DNA of 64,000 nucleotides from Escherichia phage p000v: the sequence record NC_055781.1, one strand, 5' to 3'. Shown one piece after another: positions 1,045 to 42,033 of this stretch. The stretch's first letter is position 1. Every line of letters begins with the position of its first letter. A model generated the notes under the pieces. The model saw only the letters and a list, made by a program, of their open reading frames with translations, was not told the origin of the DNA and ran no database searches. The translations under genes were made by a program, and so were the position numbers.

Positions 1045-3014
1045 TGTGAAATAGGCTCCAAATCTATAGTTAAGTACTGAGGACGTAAGTCATTTTCAAA
1101 TACGATTAAAGAACCATCCTTTGTAAAAATAATATCATCTGCAGGGTCGGAATAAAGTTCAATTGTTTGAACTTCAAAACGGTCTGAAGTGAGGTCAATT
1201 TTAGCAATGTTCCAATAAATCGAATCGGCAGGATAATTCACTTCACCAATTGAATAGTATTTGTTTCGTCCGTCAGTAACAGCAAGTTTATTAAAATCAT
1301 TACCTGTATAAGGTTGTATATTTTCGTTTTCAACAACATCGCCGTCTGCAAATGGGCCAATAATAACTTGACCTATGCCACGGTCATTACGGTCAGAAGA
1401 TACTATGCGAACACCGTATTTAATAGTTTCGTTTGCATTTTCTGGATTAGGTCTGTGCGAATCAAACGAGAATATATTAGATTCCATCGATCTATCTTTA
1501 ATCTGATTATTGTATTTAATACCGGCCTCAGGCGTTTTATAAAAGTTCTGTACTTCGCGAACCATTTGAATAGTAGCCGAAGAACCAATAATAGAAATAT
1601 CTGCATCATCGACATAAGTTAGCATTTTAGATTTTGCAAACGATGAGTTAAAAATTTCTACATCTTCAATATAATATCGGTCAATTTTATTAATAATCTG
1701 TCCTTCAAGGTATTGCTCTGATTCTTGAAGTTTATTCAACGCGTATGTAACTTTGATATTCATTTTGATAAACAAATAATCAGGCGAAATAACAACAGGT
1801 GTAATAGTCCCTAAGTTATAATCATTTAAATAGTTTTTGATGTCGTCGCGTTGAACAGAAGTCAAATACAATCCAGATTTAGGCTTAGCAGCAATATATG
1901 CGTACCCGGGTTTAGACGAATCTGTGAATGTTTGAACTGCTTGAATAATAGAACCAAACCGCTCAGAGACGAATGTGTCATAGTCGGAAGCGGTTACACA
2001 ACGTTGTTGAGTTTCACGTTTAATTGTGCCTAATTCTCGAATACGTTCAATATCTTCAGGGTCACCGCCACCATCAGCCCCGACAAAGTCTGGGTTATTG
2101 CTAGGGTTCTCGTTAATATCGATTACAGTGATATTAGCTAATGTATCAGCATAAGAAAATCCTACAGCACCGTTAGCATCTGCGCCATTAGTAGAAATAT
2201 ACTCAATTACGATTTTAGAACCCTGAACAGGCTTAAGGCCACCAATATAGTTGGATGTTAACGCGCCTTCTGATGTGTTAATAGAGATTTCGCCTTCACC
2301 AAAATAAAATTCGGTGTTCCCATCAACAGTTTCACGCATATAATAGATTGTTGACGTAGAACCAGCGTGAACCATCGACTTACGAGTCCAGTTAATCCAT
2401 TCTGCTCCGTCAACATACAACTTAACCAAATTACGGTCAATATTCTTATCACGAATAATGATAGGTTTTAATTTATCAAATGTTAATTCAGTGCGAACAA
2501 TACGACCCTGAGCTAATCGAAGACGTGGGAAATATTGATTATTTTTGTCTTTAACTACAATGACATCTTCAGTAGAAACAAAGTTATACGGGTTAACAGA
2601 AGTATCTTTAGCATATGCTAAGAAACGAGTGCCACGTGGAATGGTGATATAGTTTCTATTTAATGCATCTGTACATGTGAGCATAATTTCTGTTTGTGCC
2701 GCTGATTTAGATGAAGGCAGATATCCGTTATCTTGAGCCGCTTGTACAACAGAGCTACGCAAGTTTGCAGTGCGCATAAAACTTTCATACACTGCGCTAT
2801 TACTAAACTGTTGGATGTAAAGAGTGTTATATGCTAAAAGGTCGCACAATACGTTTAAGCGTGAACCTTCAAAATCATAATCAAGAAATTCATTCTGTCC
2901 ATGGAGCCATTCGATAATGTTTTGTTTGATTTCGGCAAATGTGCCCCCGATAAAAATCTCGGGAATAGCATTCGCTGTTCGGGTTAATTGATAATTTACA
3001 GGAGTGTTTGCCAT
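1041..3014 (-). CDS. 6: baseplate wedge protein gp6
   Basis: 657 aa; start set at MANTPVNYQLTRTANAIPE (ATG 3014, AGGA SD upstream) rather than longer track ORF; similarity to T4 gp6 along whole length. Confidence 0.92.
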   Translation of the reverse strand: MANTPVNYQLTRTANAIPEIFIGGTFAEIKQNIIEWLHGQNEFLDYDFEGSRLNVLCDLLAYNTLYIQQFSNSAVYESFMRTANLRSSVVQAAQDNGYLPSSKSAAQTEIMLTCTDALNRNYITIPRGTRFLAYAKDTSVNPYNFVSTEDVIVVKDKNNQYFPRLRLAQGRIVRTELTFDKLKPIIIRDKNIDRNLVKLYVDGAEWINWTRKSMVHAGSTSTIYYMRETVDGNTEFYFGEGEISINTSEGALTSNYIGGLKPVQGSKIVIEYISTNGADANGAVGFSYADTLANITVIDINENPSNNPDFVGADGGGDPEDIERIRELGTIKRETQQRCVTASDYDTFVSERFGSIIQAVQTFTDSSKPGYAYIAAKPKSGLYLTSVQRDDIKNYLNDYNLGTITPVVISPDYLFIKMNIKVTYALNKLQESEQYLEGQIINKIDRYYIEDVEIFNSSFAKSKMLTYVDDADISIIGSSATIQMVREVQNFYKTPEAGIKYNNQIKDRSMESNIFSFDSHRPNPENANETIKYGVRIVSSDRNDRGIGQVIIGPFADGDVVENENIQPYTGNDFNKLAVTDGRNKYYSIGEVNYPADSIYWNIAKIDLTSDRFEVQTIELYSDPADDIIFTKDGSLIVFENDLRPQYLTIDLEPISQ

Positions 3015-3022
3015 TTTAATTC

Positions 3023-3316
3023 CTATTTGATAAAGACTTTTGACGAGGCCTGAGAAACAGTATCCCCGCATGAAATTGGGTCAGCCATTTGAACGGCCTT
3101 TTTACCGGTGACGTATACTTTAGATGTACGAGGTTCAGTAACACCTCCATGAGTCTCGTATGGTTTTTTAATTTCTGTATGAGGTGTTATTTGGTCTCCT
3201 GCTACAAGAACAGGAATACCGCCGGTGAACACTTTAGATTGGGAAGCATTTATTACAGTAGGAGGCCATGCTTCATGACCTGTTGTAACGCACTTGTCGT
3301 AACTTAAGCCAGACAT
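3023..3316 (-). CDS. 5.4: PAAR-repeat spike-tip protein gp5.4
   Basis: 97 aa from [19 protein letters not shown]; matches T4 gp5.4 as recalled; track ORF N-terminal extension rejected. Confidence 0.85.
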
Positions 3317-3318
3317 TT

Positions 3319-3834
3319 TTATGGCCTCGCATAAACATAGTTTCGTAATTGTTGAGCCCATTTGCTCCAATTTCCTACTATAGTTTTTGTATAAACCTTA
3401 GTAAGAGTTTTTTGTACTGGAGCCGGTGGAGGTTCTGTACCAGAGTCACTTCTAGAGCCGCCTGATGAACTTTCTTCTTGGTAGTTATAAATCATTTCAA
3501 CCGTATAACTAAACACTTTACGAAGATTCTGAGGAGCTCTCCACAAATATAACTGTGTGGATTCATCTTTTGGTAAATCATCCCATGAAGATGCAGTTTT
3601 AAAATCATCATTTAATCGATATTTCAATGCATCCGAAGAAAAGCTAAACACACTTTCATATGTTCCATATAAATGATTACCATCAACAGTAATGCCTTGT
3701 GTCGGTTCATAATCTATTATATTTATTGACACTAAAGTTTCGGACGTTTCTAACTGTGGAGTAAAAAGGACGTCAATAGACGCCCCTTCCATGTCTTCTC
3801 CTAAGTCGGTATTTAAAGGAAGTATTTGTGCCAT
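3319..3834 (-). CDS. conserved protein between genes 5 and 5.4 (gp5.1-like)
   Basis: 171-aa ORF tightly packed between gp5 and gp5.4 on same strand; no motif recognised. Confidence 0.6.
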
Positions 3835-3837
3835 ATA

Positions 3838-5571
3838 TTACCCAATATCAATACGAGATCCGTCAACAGTGTATTGTCCTGAAGCTACTGAGCTCATTGT
3901 AGACATCGTTTCTGCCCAATCCCCGGCAACAGTCATATCAACATTACCATTAACAGTCCATTTAACGTTTCCGTTGACGGTGTAATCATGATTCCCTTCG
4001 ACCTGAGTTTTAGCATCACCTTTAACAAGAATATCTGCATTTCCGTCAACAACTATTTTGATATTACCCTTAACGTAAAGAGTTCCATCGCCTTCAACAG
4101 TTTTAGTTTGGTTACCACGAATAAAGATTGTGTCATTGCCGTCTATTTGATGGAGGCGATCTGCCATGTTATAATATATTTCATTAGCACCAACGTTAAC
4201 AAGCTTATCACCAGAAATCAAGAAGTTCCCATCGCCATTAGTGATGTCAAAAAGGTCTTCTACAGTTTTACGAGTACGACGCCCGGATGGAGAAACTTCC
4301 TCATATGACCCTGTTGGATGAACTAAGCGATAACGTTCATTACCTGGAGTGTCATCAAATTCTTGGATATGACCACTTTCTGTTTCCATAGCATGAACAT
4401 ATGGATACTCACCACGATAACTTGATTCCGGTTCTTTAAAAAGGATGCGTGAATCTAATGGAACAGGAGGACCGGCCGGGTCTTCTGAATCGGTATTTCT
4501 AGTAACTAAATCGGCACCAACTCCTGGTGAAGGTGGTGTTTTAACAGGAACACCGTACGATTCCATGTTACCAGTTAAAATAATTGTTGTTACGCGTGAA
4601 GCACGTCCTTTAGTCTGTTGGAACCATAATGAATCACGCCCGGATTTGTATGCAGTTTTCCAATCACCTGTGGCCATTGCTTTAAGCATAGTATTGAATT
4701 TTGCTACGCCACCAACGCCCATTTGGAAGCACATGTTTTCTAATGCCATTTGACGAGACCTGTTCATTTTAGCATAAACAGGACCTACTTTGGAATTAGA
4801 ACGAATGTCTTTCTGCATCTTAGCAAGGTCTTTCTCAAATAACGCTGTTGCTTCTTCTAATGTAATAGTTCCCGGATTTCCTGTTACTTCACGCCCTACT
4901 TGATCGGATAACAATTTATTAATTCGAGACATATCTCGGGTCTTTTCCATTACGATAAGGTGTCCAATACCTACTGTAGGATATCCGAGATGGTCCCAAT
5001 ACACTTTATCACGAAGTCCTTCGTCACGACGTAACATTTCCGTTATTGTAAAATTAGGGTCATCATCTTCTGGAATATTTGCTAAATCTGTATCGTCTGG
5101 GTTTATACCATAATCCAAGTTGTTATCTTGAATTACGTTAGAGTTTGAATAATAACCGGCTTCACCACCTTGGTTTAATACGTTAGTATCATTACCTAAA
5201 CGTCGTGGATATTGGCCTGTCGGGTCTGAAAAACCTTCAAGTCTATTAGGCTTTTCACGTACGATTCCGCCGTATGTACCAAGTACAATCCCGTTTGTTT
5301 TCCATTTGTCTAAGAAATGACCATATACTCGAGTTCCTTCAACAGGACCTGTAACAGAACCACCAATACCTGACATTGATGCGGACGTAATAGGTTGAAT
5401 AACAGTCATCCATGGAAGTTTTTCTGTAGGAATACCTTGCACATCACCTTGTGCTCTCTGTGCTGGATGAAGACCAACGACTCGAACTCGAACTCGCCCT
5501 TGTTTTAATGGGTCCATTCTGTCCTCGACAACACCCACGAACCAATTAAGGCTACTGCTAATCATTTCCAT
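3838..5571 (-). CDS. 5: baseplate hub / cell-puncturing protein gp5 with lysozyme domain
   Basis: 577 aa; T4-lysozyme-like segment (GIGHL...WFQQTKGRASRVTTIILTG) and C-terminal beta-helix repeats (VxGNxxxTV). Confidence 0.93.
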   Translation of the reverse strand: MEMISSSLNWFVGVVEDRMDPLKQGRVRVRVVGLHPAQRAQGDVQGIPTEKLPWMTVIQPITSASMSGIGGSVTGPVEGTRVYGHFLDKWKTNGIVLGTYGGIVREKPNRLEGFSDPTGQYPRRLGNDTNVLNQGGEAGYYSNSNVIQDNNLDYGINPDDTDLANIPEDDDPNFTITEMLRRDEGLRDKVYWDHLGYPTVGIGHLIVMEKTRDMSRINKLLSDQVGREVTGNPGTITLEEATALFEKDLAKMQKDIRSNSKVGPVYAKMNRSRQMALENMCFQMGVGGVAKFNTMLKAMATGDWKTAYKSGRDSLWFQQTKGRASRVTTIILTGNMESYGVPVKTPPSPGVGADLVTRNTDSEDPAGPPVPLDSRILFKEPESSYRGEYPYVHAMETESGHIQEFDDTPGNERYRLVHPTGSYEEVSPSGRRTRKTVEDLFDITNGDGNFLISGDKLVNVGANEIYYNMADRLHQIDGNDTIFIRGNQTKTVEGDGTLYVKGNIKIVVDGNADILVKGDAKTQVEGNHDYTVNGNVKWTVNGNVDMTVAGDWAETMSTMSSVASGQYTVDGSRIDIG

Positions 5572-6146
5572 TATGCAATCTCCATCTCACGAATCAAATC
5601 AGTAATAAACGAGTTTATATCTTCTTTTGCAACAATTTTTATTTTACGAAGTTTTTCATTATCTAATACTGCCGCTTCATAAGTATCTACTGCAGCTAAA
5701 GGTCCTTTATATTGCGGATACTTACGAGCTTCGTCACCTTTGTCATACCACACTAAAGGCTCATCCGGATATGAAACTAAATTGTAAAATTTCTCACGGT
5801 TCTCGTTAATATGGTAAAGAATTTGGTCTCCGCCAGCATTTGCATATTTCTGAATAGACGCTTGATACGCTGCTTCCTGAGATGTAATCCAACCATAATA
5901 TGGGTCATAGTTATCATTGCACATCAAAAGGACCCAGTATAATTGAGGGTTGCCATAAATTATGTTTGCTAGTTCTTCAGGACGCGGAGAGCCTTTAATA
6001 TAATAAGAACGTAATCTATAATTAGCAGCAACACGCTTAAAGTACTCTTTATAGTTACGAAATATGTCTGTCATAGGAATAGTAGGTGCATTCTTATCAA
6101 CTGTTTTAGCACTATATCCTATTGGGTCGAAGAATGTAAATAACAA
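5571..6146 (-). CDS. 53: baseplate wedge protein gp53
   Basis: 191 aa MLFTFFDPIGY...; first codon is TTG preceded by AGGAGA SD; 1-nt overlap with gp5 start. Confidence 0.85.
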   Translation of the reverse strand: MLFTFFDPIGYSAKTVDKNAPTIPMTDIFRNYKEYFKRVAANYRLRSYYIKGSPRPEELANIIYGNPQLYWVLLMCNDNYDPYYGWITSQEAAYQASIQKYANAGGDQILYHINENREKFYNLVSYPDEPLVWYDKGDEARKYPQYKGPLAAVDTYEAAVLDNEKLRKIKIVAKEDINSFITDLIREMEIA

Positions 6147-6173
6147 AATAGTCTCCTTCCAATATGAAATTGG

Positions 6174-6181
6174 TATAAATA
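6174..6181 (+). promoter_or_regulatory. T4-type late promoter TATAAATA, upstream of gene 4
   Basis: Exact TATAAATA about 27 nt upstream of gp4 ATG. Confidence 0.6.
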
Positions 6182-6188
6182 ATAATAC

Positions 6189-6196
6189 TATTTATA
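6189..6196 (-). promoter_or_regulatory. T4-type late promoter TATAAATA (reverse strand), upstream of gene 53
   Basis: Plus-strand TATTTATA is reverse complement of TATAAATA, about 43 nt upstream of gp53 start; divergent with the gene 4 promoter. Confidence 0.55.
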
Positions 6197-6207
6197 AGGA
6201 GGACAAC

Positions 6208-6657
6208 ATGGCCTACTCTGGTAAATGGGTCCCAAAAAATTTAAAAAAATACCGTGGAGACCATACCAAAATAACGTATCGTTCAAACTGGGAAAAATTC
6301 TTTTTCGAATGGTTAGATAAAAATCCAGAAATTATTGCATGGGGCAGCGAAACGGCAGTAATTCCATATTTCTGTAACGCAGAAGGTAAAAAACGTCGAT
6401 ACTTTATGGATATATGGATGAAAGATGCATCAGGTCAAGAGTTCTTTGTAGAAATAAAACCAAAGAAAGAAACTCAACCACCTATTAAGCCTGCAAATCT
6501 TACGACCGCAGCAAAGAAACGTTATATGAATGAAATCTACGTGTGGTCTGTGAACTGCGACAAATGGAAAGCTGCGTCAGCATTAGCGGCTAAAAGAAAT
6601 ATTAAATTCAGAATTCTCACAGAAGACGGTTTACGTCGTTTAGGATATAAGGGATGA
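6208..6657 (+). CDS. 4: head completion protein gp4
   Basis: 149 aa from MAYSGKWVPKNLKKYRGD with GGAGGA SD; matches T4 gp4 as recalled; track N-terminal extension rejected. Confidence 0.85.
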   Translation: MAYSGKWVPKNLKKYRGDHTKITYRSNWEKFFFEWLDKNPEIIAWGSETAVIPYFCNAEGKKRRYFMDIWMKDASGQEFFVEIKPKKETQPPIKPANLTTAAKKRYMNEIYVWSVNCDKWKAASALAAKRNIKFRILTEDGLRRLGYKG

Positions 6658-6658
6658 T

Positions 6659-7309
6659 ATGTATACTGTATATAAAATAACTAACATCGTAAATAATAAA
6701 ATTTATATAGGTGTTCATAAAACTAATAACCCGGATGATTCTTATAAAGGAACAGGTAAAATTATCTTAAAAGCCCATGCTAAATACGGATTAGATAATT
6801 TTGTAAAAGAAGTATTATATGTGTATGATACCGGTGACGAATTACTAAATGAAGAAATGGCTTTCCAAAAGGAAGCAGAATTAGTTGATCAATCTTTTGT
6901 GGATAGAGAAGATACATATAATATAGACCTAGGAGGAAAGGGAGGACGAGGCCGTTCTATTGATGTGCGAAAAAGAATAGGCGATTCATCCAGAGGTAGA
7001 AAATTAGGTCCTATTTCCGAAGAATCTAAAAAGAAAATGAGTTTAGCTAAGAAGGGTAAGAAATTATCCGAAGAGCATAAAGCTAAAATAGGTAAAGCAG
7101 GCCGAGGCAGGATAATGCCTAAAGAGATTAGAGACAAAATAAAAAATACTCTTACGGGACGAAATAGAACTCCTGAAGAAAAGGAAAACATGAGATTAGG
7201 ATACTTAAATACTCCTAATAAGATATGCCAATACTGCGGTATAGAATGTAAACCTGCGCCTTATAAACGTTGGCATGGTGATAATTGTAAAATGAGGAAA
7301 GTTGAATGA
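6659..7309 (+). CDS. GIY-YIG homing endonuclease (Seg-like)
   Basis: N-terminal [23 protein letters not shown] motif; basic C-terminal DNA-binding region; inserted between genes 4 and 2 with ATGA overlap onto gene 2. Confidence 0.85.
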
Positions 7310-8127
7310 GCATATTCCAAATTATATCTGAAGGCGTACAAGCCCCTAAGATTGCTCAGTCTATTAACGAAAGAAAATGGATTAAGGTGGGATTAGAGTA
7401 CAAGAAAGCTAAAGAGAAAGGAATCACTGCAAAAGCATTTGCAGAATCAAAAGGAATAAAATACTCGACGTTTAAGTCTGCAATGTCTAAATATGCATCG
7501 GCTATTAAAACTGAACAGAAAATTGAAACACTTGAATCTAAACCTAAAAATAAACTCAATAAGCAAGAACGTCAACTTCTGATGATAAACTCGTTTCGCA
7601 GTTCAATACGAGAAAAGATTAGAAATGAAGGCGCAGCAGTAAACAACAAATCATCTAAGTGGTTTGTTGAAACAATTAAGAAAAGTGTAAAAGGTCATAA
7701 AGTAGTCAAGCCTACGCCAGGCAAAATTTATACTTACGTGTATGATGCTAAACATAAAGATACTCTGCCATACTGGGACAGATATCCTTTGATTATTTAT
7801 TTAGGATTAGGTAAACATAATTTGTTGTATGGGTTAAACTTGCACTATATCCCACCTAAAGCACGACAACAGTTTCTTGAAGAATTGCTGAAGCAATATG
7901 CTAGCACAACTACTATTACTAATAACACAAAGTTGAAGATAGACTGGAGCAAGGTGAAAGGATTTCAAGGTGCTGACAAAATGATTAAAGCATACCTGCC
8001 AGGCCACATTAGAGGAACAATAACAGAAATCGCTCCTAAAGACTGGGCTAACATAATCATGTTACCTACTCAGCAGTTTATGTCAAAAGGAAAACGTTTC
8101 TCTGCGAATACTGTTTGGAAATCTTAA
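7306..8127 (+). CDS. 2: DNA end protector protein gp2
   Basis: 273 aa; size and position (between 4 and 3) as in T4; basic protein. Confidence 0.75.
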
Positions 8128-12181: not shown

Positions 12182-12253
12182 GGCCCTGTAGCTCAATGGG
12201 AGAGCTGTCAGCTCATAACTGATAGGTAGCTGGATCGAAACCAGCCAGGGCCA
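12182..12253 (+). tRNA. tRNA with CAU anticodon (elongator Met or Ile2-type); CCA not encoded
   Basis: Hand-folded cloverleaf: acceptor GGCCCTG/CAGGGCC, D-stem GCTC/GAGC, anticodon stem GTCAG/CTGAT with loop CTCATAA, T-stem GCTGG/CCAGC; 1-72 pair is G-C so not an initiator. Confidence 0.8.
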
Positions 12254-39243: not shown

Positions 39244-39278
39244 TAAATACCCTTATCTATTTAAGGTAAGGGTTTATT

Positions 39279-39752
39279 ATGTTATTATCTGGCAAATTAT
39301 ACAAAGAAGAAAAACAAAAATTTTATGATGCACAGAACGGTAAGTGTCCTATTTGCCACCGTGAATTAGACCCTGATGTTCAAGGTAACCATCTTGACCA
39401 CGACCACGAGTTAAACGGGCCAAAAGCCGGTAGAGTTCGTGGATTACTCTGTAATCTGTGCAACGCAGCAGAAGGCCAAATGAAGCATAAGTTCAACCGT
39501 TCTGGTCTTAAAGGTCAAAACGTTGATTACCTCGAATGGCTTGAAGCTCTTCTTGCTTATTTGAAACAAGATTATTCTGATAATAATATCCATCCTAATT
39601 TTGTTCCAGACAAAACTAAAGAGTTCTCAAGACTAGGTAAAGAGGAAATGATGGCTGAGATGCTTCAAAGAGGATTTGAATATAATGAATCTGATACTAA
39701 AACACAATTAATAGCTTCATTCAAAAAGCAGCTTAGAAAGAGTTTAAAATGA
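39279..39752 (+). CDS. 49: recombination endonuclease VII (gp49)
   Basis: MLLSGKLYKEEKQKFYDAQNGKCPICHREL...; colinear with T4 endo VII. Confidence 0.95.
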   Translation: MLLSGKLYKEEKQKFYDAQNGKCPICHRELDPDVQGNHLDHDHELNGPKAGRVRGLLCNLCNAAEGQMKHKFNRSGLKGQNVDYLEWLEALLAYLKQDYSDNNIHPNFVPDKTKEFSRLGKEEMMAEMLQRGFEYNESDTKTQLIASFKKQLRKSLK

Positions 39753-41566
39753 AAATTGAAAAAGAAATTGAAGGATTAATTTATAAAACTAATAAAGATC
39801 TTTTGAACGAGAATGCTAATAAAGATTCTCGTGTTTTTCCAACTCAACGGGACCTTATGGCTGGTATTGTGTCTAAGCACATTGCCAAAAATATGGTCCC
39901 GTCTTTTATTATGAATGCGCATGAAAGTGGAATTATCCACATGCATGATATTGATTATTCTCCTGCTCTTCCGTTTACTAATTGTTGTTTAGTCGATTTA
40001 AAGGGGATGCTTGAGAACGGATTTAAATTAGGCAATGCTCAAATTGAAACGCCTAAATCGATTGGTGTTGCTACTGCAATTATGGCACAAATTACTGCAC
40101 AAGTTGCTTCACATCAGTATGGCGGAACTACATTTGCAAATGTCGATAAAGTTCTTTCTCCTTATGTTAAACGTACATACGCTAAACATGTTGAAGATGC
40201 AGAAAAATGGCAAATCGCTGATGCGTTGAATTATGCTCAATCTAAAACAGAAAAAGACGTATACGATGCATTCCAAGCTTATGAATATGAAGTAAATACT
40301 CTCTTTAGTTCAAACGGACAAACGCCTTTTGTAACAATTACATTTGGTACGGGAACCGATTGGACTGAACGAATGATTCAGAAGGCAATTCTGAAAAATC
40401 GGATTAAAGGTCTTGGTCGTGATGGGATAACTCCTATTTTTCCTAAACTTGTTATGTTTGTTGAAGAAGGTGTTAATCTTTATAAAGATGATCCAAACTA
40501 TGATATTAAACAACTTGCGTTAGAATGTGCAAGCAAAAGAATGTATCCTGACATTATTTCGGTTAAGAATAATAAAGCTATTACCGGTTCTTCAGTTCCT
40601 GTTTCTCCAATGGGTTGCCGTAGTTTCTTGAGCGTATGGAAAGATTCAACTGGAAATGAAATTCTTGACGGTCGTAATAATCTCGGTGTTGTAACACTGA
40701 ATCTTCCTCGCATCGCATTAGATTCTTATATTGGAACACAGTTCAATGAACAGAAATTTGTTGAATTATTCAATGAACGAATGGATTTATGTTTTGAAGC
40801 TTTGATGTGTAGAATTAGTTCCTTAAAAGGAGTTAAAGCGACTGTTGCTCCTATTCTTTACCAAGAAGGTGCATTCGGGGTTCGTCTTAAACCTGATGAC
40901 GATATAATTGAGTTATTTAAAAACGGTAGAAGTTCAGTGTCTTTAGGATACATCGGTATTCATGAATTGAATATTCTTGTTGGTCGTGATATTGGACAAG
41001 AAATTTTAACTAAAATGAATGCTCATCTTAAACAGTGGACTGAAAGAACTGGTTTTGCTTTTAGTTTGTATTCTACTCCTGCTGAAAACCTTTGTTATCG
41101 CTTCTGTAAACTCGATACAGAAAAATATGGAAGTGTAAAAGATGTTACCGATAAAGGCTGGTACACTAACAGTTTCCACGTTTCAGTAGAAGAAAATATT
41201 ACTCCGTTTGAAAAGATTTCTCGTGAAGCGCCATATCATTTCATTGCGACAGGTGGTCACATTTCTTATGTTGAACTTCCAGATATGAAAAACAATTTAA
41301 AGGGACTTGAGGCCGTCTGGGATTATGCTGCACAACATTTAGATTATTTTGGTGTTAATATGCCAGTGGATAAATGTTTTACATGTGGAAGTACCCATGA
41401 AATGACTCCTACTGAAAACGGATTTGTTTGTTCAGTTTGCGGAGAAACTGATCCTAAAAAGATGAACACCATAAGAAGAACATGCGGTTATTTGGGAAAT
41501 CCGAACGAACGCGGATTTAATCTCGGTAAAAATAAAGAAATCATGCATAGGGTTAAACACCAATGA
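39749..41566 (+). CDS. nrdD: anaerobic ribonucleoside-triphosphate reductase NrdD
   Basis: 605 aa; C-terminal glycyl radical motif RRTCGYLGN; uninterrupted ORF. Confidence 0.93.
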   Translation: MKIEKEIEGLIYKTNKDLLNENANKDSRVFPTQRDLMAGIVSKHIAKNMVPSFIMNAHESGIIHMHDIDYSPALPFTNCCLVDLKGMLENGFKLGNAQIETPKSIGVATAIMAQITAQVASHQYGGTTFANVDKVLSPYVKRTYAKHVEDAEKWQIADALNYAQSKTEKDVYDAFQAYEYEVNTLFSSNGQTPFVTITFGTGTDWTERMIQKAILKNRIKGLGRDGITPIFPKLVMFVEEGVNLYKDDPNYDIKQLALECASKRMYPDIISVKNNKAITGSSVPVSPMGCRSFLSVWKDSTGNEILDGRNNLGVVTLNLPRIALDSYIGTQFNEQKFVELFNERMDLCFEALMCRISSLKGVKATVAPILYQEGAFGVRLKPDDDIIELFKNGRSSVSLGYIGIHELNILVGRDIGQEILTKMNAHLKQWTERTGFAFSLYSTPAENLCYRFCKLDTEKYGSVKDVTDKGWYTNSFHVSVEENITPFEKISREAPYHFIATGGHISYVELPDMKNNLKGLEAVWDYAAQHLDYFGVNMPVDKCFTCGSTHEMTPTENGFVCSVCGETDPKKMNTIRRTCGYLGNPNERGFNLGKNKEIMHRVKHQ

Positions 41567-42033
41567 ATTATGATAGATTTTATCCTTGCGATTTTGTGAA
41601 TGGCCCGGGATGCAGGGTCGTTCTTTTCGTTACGGGTTGTTTGCATAAATGCGAAGGGTGTTATAATAAATCAACATGGAATGCTAGAAATGGTATTCCA
41701 TTCACTGGTGAAACACTAGAACAATTAATTGAATGTTTGAATAATGATTATATAGAAGGATTAACTATAACCGGAGGTGACCCTCTCTATCCTGATAACC
41801 GAGATGTTATTCATTGCATTGCTCAAACAGTAAAAAATCTTTATCCCAATAAAAGCATTTGGTTGTGGACAGGATATAAGTTTGAAGATATTAAACAACT
41901 AGAAATGCTTAAATATGTTGATGTTATTATTGATGGGAAGTATGAGAAAAATCTTCCGACTAAAAAGCTGTGGCGAGGATCAGATAATCAGCGACTTTGG
42001 TCAAATACCGATGGGGTGTGGAAACATGATTAA
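41563..42033 (+). CDS. nrdG: anaerobic ribonucleotide reductase activating protein NrdG
   Basis: Radical SAM CxxxCxxC (CLHKCEGCYN); follows nrdD with overlap. Confidence 0.9.
   Translation: MNYDRFYPCDFVNGPGCRVVLFVTGCLHKCEGCYNKSTWNARNGIPFTGETLEQLIECLNNDYIEGLTITGGDPLYPDNRDVIHCIAQTVKNLYPNKSIWLWTGYKFEDIKQLEMLKYVDVIIDGKYEKNLPTKKLWRGSDNQRLWSNTDGVWKHD

Follow-up and report, generated by a model that had tools for sequence, protein, structure and literature searches.

The nrdD gene of Escherichia phage p000v, at positions 39749-41566 of the 64-kb stretch of DNA analysed here (the window), is almost certainly an intact and colinear gene of an RB69-like (Mosigvirus) T-even phage, which encodes a glycyl-radical enzyme, the large subunit of the class III (anaerobic) ribonucleoside-triphosphate reductase, and which appears to contain an unoccupied homing site. 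The nrdD gene of T4, also named sunY, encodes the same enzyme of 605 amino acids but is interrupted after nt 538 by a self-splicing intron of 1033 nt, in which the GIY-YIG endonuclease I-TevII is encoded, whereas the gene in the window has no intron. The features on which the following description is based are:

39279..39752, + strand: gene 49, recombination endonuclease VII, 157 aa (Pfam Endonuclease_7 and Endonuc-dimeris), found in the same place in RB69 and T4
39749..41566, + strand: nrdD, class III (anaerobic) ribonucleoside-triphosphate reductase large subunit, 605 codons and a stop codon without interruption (ORF list, Pfam and alignments)
40277..40306, no strand: 30 bp from -10 to +20 about the insertion site, identical to the intron-less T4 junction at 23 of 30 positions
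40286..40287, no strand: empty intron insertion site between nt 538 and 539 of nrdD, inside the Tyr179 codon (GAA T/AT GAA); the T4 and JK45 introns sit between the homologous bases
40616..40618, + strand: codon of Cys290, conserved with respect to T4 NrdD
41375..41440, + strand: C-terminal metal site of four cysteines (Cys543, Cys546, Cys561 and Cys564), all four conserved
41486..41488, + strand: codon of Gly580, the glycyl-radical site in RRTCGYLG (alignment with T4 NrdD)
41563..42033, + strand: nrdG, radical-SAM activase, 156 aa (Pfam Fer4_12, E=6.8e-48, and Radical_SAM), with the motif CLHKCEGC

In the program-made list of open reading frames, nrdD is opened by an ATG and encodes 605 amino acids; at about 36% G+C, where approximately 7% of random codons are stops, base-composition arithmetic gives a chance of about 1e-19 for an open frame of 605 codons. 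Its product is matched by the Pfam family NRDD (PF13597) in a single stretch, with residues 21-604 aligned to model positions 1-562 (E=2.5e-171, 571.6 bits against a cut-off of 26.2), and the family Gly_radical covers residues 481-586 (E=1.4e-25). The description of nrdD as one continuous frame of 605 codons, given by an earlier reading of the sequence alone, is confirmed by the list of frames and by this uninterrupted profile match, and the frame does run, as that reading had also claimed, through the glycyl-radical motif, found as RRTCGYLG with Gly580.

The comparison with the T4 protein of known structure (PDB 1H78, 1H79, 1H7A, 1H7B and 1HK8) is equally direct: residues 1-605 align on residues 1-605 without gaps (E=0), so that two proteins of equal length are matched at 605 of 605 positions with only 8 substitutions, corresponding to 98.7% identity. 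Cys79, Cys290, Cys543, Cys546, Cys561, Cys564 and Gly580 are all retained in this alignment; residue 580 is a glycine in the window protein and an alanine in the crystal sequence 1H78. According to published work on T4 NrdD, Cys290 is the thiyl-radical cysteine and Cys79 an active-site cysteine, and Cys543, Cys546, Cys561 and Cys564 are the zinc cysteines. The family profile, the glycyl-radical motif, the key cysteines and the nearby NrdG are the sequence features of a class III NrdD, and the product of the window gene is predicted to be active as a reductase.

The gene is embedded between the same neighbors as in T4 and RB69. Gene 49 lies immediately upstream, preceded in turn by pin (PinA inhibitor domain), and nrdG, whose product contains a CX3CX2C motif, follows immediately downstream. 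The stop codon of gene 49 and the start codon of nrdD overlap in an ATGA (aaATGAaa, 39749-39752), and the same arrangement is found between nrdD and nrdG (ccaATGAat). The junction of nrdD and nrdG holds neither a mobC nor a segH gene, in contrast to T4, in which the free-standing HNH gene mobC is located between nrdD and nrdG although the flanking genes 49 and nrdG are common to both phages, and to the phages HY03 and F2, which have a homing endonuclease gene at the position of T4 mobC (annotated as SegH in HY03).

That T4 nrdD has an intron, as stated in the sequence-only reading, is evident from the record NC_000866, whose annotation joins the gene from two pieces and places I-TevII within it, and from the Rfam family Intron_gpI, which scores 105.3 bits on it. 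The splice site was located by trying every possible junction for the removal of 1033 nt from the T4 gene: only the cut after nt 538 (538/1572) yields at once an exon-final U, an intron-final G and the peptide AYEYEV present in the window protein, and the layout of the T4 gene is therefore an exon of 538 nt, an intron of 1033 nt and an exon of 1280 nt. Against these exons the window gene is colinear and gap-free throughout, with nt 1-536 aligned to T4 nt 1-536 at 92.4% identity and nt 539-1818 aligned to T4 nt 1572-2851 at 94.6%, giving 93.9% nucleotide identity over the exons. The alignment is also gap-free against the exons of Shigella phage JK45, a second intron carrier described below. The total lengths of the genes are 1818 nt in the window, 2851 nt in T4 and 2863 nt in JK45. 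Alignment to the T4 exons was the check proposed with the original observation, and the intron-free reading is upheld by it.

A search for the intron itself led to the same picture. The Rfam group I family (Intron_gpI, RF00028) was not found anywhere in the 64-kb window, either at the gathering threshold or at E≤1 with permissive filters. The T4 intron and the JK45 intron, at 70.6 bits, served as positive controls; the latter was missed by the fast filters of the gathering mode and detected with permissive filters, and for this reason all 64 kb were rescanned at E≤1. The permissive scan added just two hits, which were to plastid families, at chance level and well under the cut-offs. By BLAST, the intron DNA of T4 and JK45 gave in the window only chance-level matches of 14-44 nt (E of at least 0.05), none of which is in nrdD, and tblastn with both I-TevII proteins gave no match in or near nrdD and a single weak one (E=0.001) at 6785-7153, in an unrelated free-standing gene. 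A group I core, an insertion of about 1 kb after nt 538 and a GIY-YIG ORF, all characteristic of an intron-bearing allele, are thus absent from the window nrdD.

These results leave virtually no room for a cryptic or degenerate intron, or an intein, hidden within the nrdD frame and removed after transcription or translation. Such an element is contradicted by a window protein exactly as long as the spliced T4 NrdD and without indels, by a Pfam match that crosses all 562 model positions in one stretch, and by the empty Rfam scan at E≤1 together with the short chance matches of intron DNA located elsewhere in the window. The cryptic intron, which the sequence-only reading had named as the case against its own interpretation, can be considered ruled out, as the alignments show no gap and the covariance-model scans no intron.

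At the point that matches the T4 insertion, between 40286 and 40287, nothing is inserted. The window reads GCTTATGAAT upstream and ATGAAGTAAATACTCTCTTT downstream of this point, and the intron-less junction of T4 reads GCTTATGAGT and ATGAAGTGAACACGTTATTC, respectively. The 30 bp from -10 to +20 correspond to the stretch reported for I-TevII recognition in intron-less T4 DNA, and the enzyme reportedly cleaves approximately 13-15 nt downstream of the insertion point. Seven of these 30 bases, at -2, +8, +11, +14, +15, +17 and +20, differ from the T4 junction, all of the changes being synonymous; 25 of the 30 are identical to the junction of the JK45 type. The G-to-A change at -2 would produce an A·C mismatch in the P1 helix, between the exon end UAUGAGU and the intron guide GCUCAUG.

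The most informative comparison is with JK45 (NC_054940), whose backbone is RB69-like, with 96.8% identity to the window over 25 kb, and whose spliced nrdD exons are 96.3% identical in DNA to the window gene, with 3 amino-acid differences, but which contains a group I intron of 1045 nt (positions 2981-4025 of the JK45 sequence piece compared) exactly at the position that is empty in the window. In RefSeq, JK45 nrdD is not annotated as a join but split into two CDSs. The endonuclease of the JK45-type intron is 56% identical to T4 I-TevII. At 53 informative sites of nrdD the intron-less Mosigviruses (the window, RB69 and LF82-41) share a base that is not found in the intron carriers HY03 and F2. 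In JK45 the base is of the donor type, that of the carriers, at 8 consecutive informative sites, from nt 528 to nt 564 (-11 to +26, including -2), and at the other 45 JK45 has the Mosigvirus base in 44 cases and a base of neither type in one. This run is the classic signature of co-conversion during homing, with a very short tract, and it suggests that a window-like site has probably been invaded on one occasion or more, after cleavage by at least the enzyme of the JK45 type. Across nt 501-600 of nrdD the window has none of the eight donor-type bases that mark JK45, and its own site looks like an uninvaded homing site.

The same comparison bears on the possibility that the site is empty since it is immune, that is, that synonymous changes around the sequence recognized and cleaved by I-TevII protect the window allele from this enzyme. 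Several of the seven synonymous differences from the T4 junction do fall near the reported cleavage position, but JK45, on its RB69-like backbone, was invaded by an intron with a diverged enzyme, and GIY-YIG homing endonucleases are tolerant of many substitutions, so that immunity appears unlikely. A narrower form of this idea, in which the synonymous changes clustered at +8 to +20 would render the allele resistant to the T4-type I-TevII but not to the diverged JK45-type enzyme, we regard as a rather doubtful prospect; if true, resistance to the T4-type enzyme would represent a small natural case of homing-site escape and endonuclease retargeting in T-even phages. Another account regards the empty site as a secondary state: the lineage of the window would formerly have had the intron and would have been precisely rid of it, for instance when its allele recombined with an intron-less one. 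Both precise loss and lateral gain have been treated in the literature on T-even introns (PMC2988022), and intron decay does occur, as seen in the nrdD introns of Escherichia phages 215Ecol030PP and BYEP01, which are shortened. However, no base separates the window from RB69 in nt 501-600, which surround the insertion site, and the window hence shows no trace of past invasion: its flanks are of the Mosigvirus type, with no donor-type base at any of the eight sites of nt 528-564, and nearly all of its nearest relatives among the matches listed are intron-less too. Secondary loss therefore seems very improbable, even though a loss through recombination with an intron-less Mosigvirus would be traceless. 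The reading that we prefer is that of an intact gene with an unoccupied site.

This reading is in agreement with the distribution of the intron among the relatives. The nrdD region of the window is 96-98% identical to Mosigvirus genomes; over 3.3 kb the identity is 98.2% for LF82-41 and 95.9% for RB69, and for LF82-41 it is 97.2% over 25 kb. In the type phage RB69, nrdD (NP_861775, NC_004928) is, as in the window, an uninterrupted gene of 1818 nt, which differs only by point substitutions (95.3% nucleotide identity across nrdD), and the order 49-nrdD-nrdG is also like that of the window, nrdG following nrdD without an intervening endonuclease gene. The region gave matches in 942 phage records, and in 727 of these the match extends over 80% or more of the query. 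The T4 intron was found at full length in 69 records in a low-stringency search, 25 of which (T4 isolates and Yersinia phage fPS-2) are at least 99% identical while the others are about 66% identical, and the JK45-type intron was found at full length in 44 records; of the 69, then, 25 are of the T4 type and 44 of the JK45 type, and two shortened introns come in addition. An nrdD intron is thus carried by approximately 7-10% of the records of T4-like phages (about 70 of roughly 730-940), a frequency counted on database records that include GenBank/RefSeq duplicates and many laboratory isolates of T4. Nearly all of the closest relatives among the matches listed also have no intron, and among the best 40 of the 942 records, those nearest to the window, JK45 is the only carrier of a JK45-type intron. 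An intron-free nrdD is therefore the norm among T4-like phages, and the window gene, which matches the annotated state of RB69, is an instance of a majority condition that is already known. The variable occurrence of T4 introns among T-even phages is established and has been published since 1987-89 (PMC2988022), and RB69 has been tabulated with zero homing endonuclease genes (PMC2993671, Table 5). The shortened introns mentioned above lie inside nrdD and are of the JK45 type, retaining 46% of the intron in 215Ecol030PP (PP328843) and 34% in BYEP01 (OR757453) at more than 99% identity; they look like introns from which most or all of the endonuclease ORF has gone.

A coherent functional scheme can be proposed for the locus. 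Genes 49, nrdD and nrdG are tightly packed, each overlapping its neighbor by ATGA, and because of this overlap the translation of nrdD is probably coupled to that of nrdG. With S-adenosylmethionine and an iron-sulfur cluster, NrdG would form a radical at Gly580, from which the radical would pass to Cys290 for the reduction of ribonucleoside triphosphates under anaerobic conditions. This radical mechanism is established knowledge for the NrdD and NrdG of T4, and it is applied to the window protein on account of the 98.7% identity between the two enzymes. The nrdD mRNA of the window would need no splicing, because the mobile group I intron and its I-TevII gene were either never inserted or left no trace; on this history, reconstructed from the sequence, the junction between 40286 and 40287 would be an unoccupied homing site.

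For annotation, it follows that nrdD of the window is to be given as a single CDS and not as a join. The phage is one of the RB69-like group, in which most members are without the T4 introns, and its nrdD offers a clean, intron-less reference allele of the homing site. Together, the window and JK45 form a natural before-and-after pair for intron homing, a phenomenon that is itself textbook knowledge, and beyond correct annotation the observation is of little importance.

Some further differences among the relatives were observed around the gene. The spacer between pin and gene 49 measures 35 nt in the window (39244-39278), against approximately 228 nt with an ORF of 180 nt (RB69ORF087c) in RB69, LF82-41 and many other relatives, and this presence/absence polymorphism of 193 nt is the reason why the relatives appear as two-piece matches in the database search. 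In HY03 and F2, nrdD departs strongly from the window gene over about its last 80 nt (nt 1740-1818): the final 118 nt contain 31 differences, and the last residue is not the same. This stretch lies directly upstream of their homing endonuclease gene (SegH in HY03), and its divergence fits a replacement of sequence at the end of the gene associated with the endonuclease.

Elsewhere in the window, a free-standing gene for a putative GIY-YIG/NUMOD3 homing endonuclease of 216 aa, with the N-terminus VYKITN...KIYIG, is located at 6659-7309 (+ strand), flanked on one side by the head-completion gene (6064-6657, TnsA-like domain) and on the other by the DNA end protector gene (7306-8127). The Pfam matches of its product are marginal, with 21.1 bits for SegE_GIY-YIG, below the cut-off of 25, and 20.7 bits for NUMOD3 against 20.4. 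The surrounding stretch of 2.8 kb is covered over at least 80% in only 5 of the 708 phage records that match it, namely ChristianSchoenbein, HX01 (two records) and GADS24, which cover it in full, and ECO111 5-P, which covers 82%. The other relatives among the matches listed, including LF82-41, cover 76% of the stretch in two pieces, a pattern consistent with the lack of about 650 nt in these phages. The segment 6001-8000 is also unusual in composition, with a G+C content of 0.344 and an AT skew of 0.21. The phage is therefore one that has neither the nrdD intron nor mobC, yet harbors a rare, putatively mobile endonuclease gene at another locus. The only tRNA gene of the 64 kb encodes a tRNA-Met (anticodon CAT) at 12182-12253 on the + strand (Rfam 62.4 bits); in T4 the corresponding region holds a cluster of eight tRNA genes.
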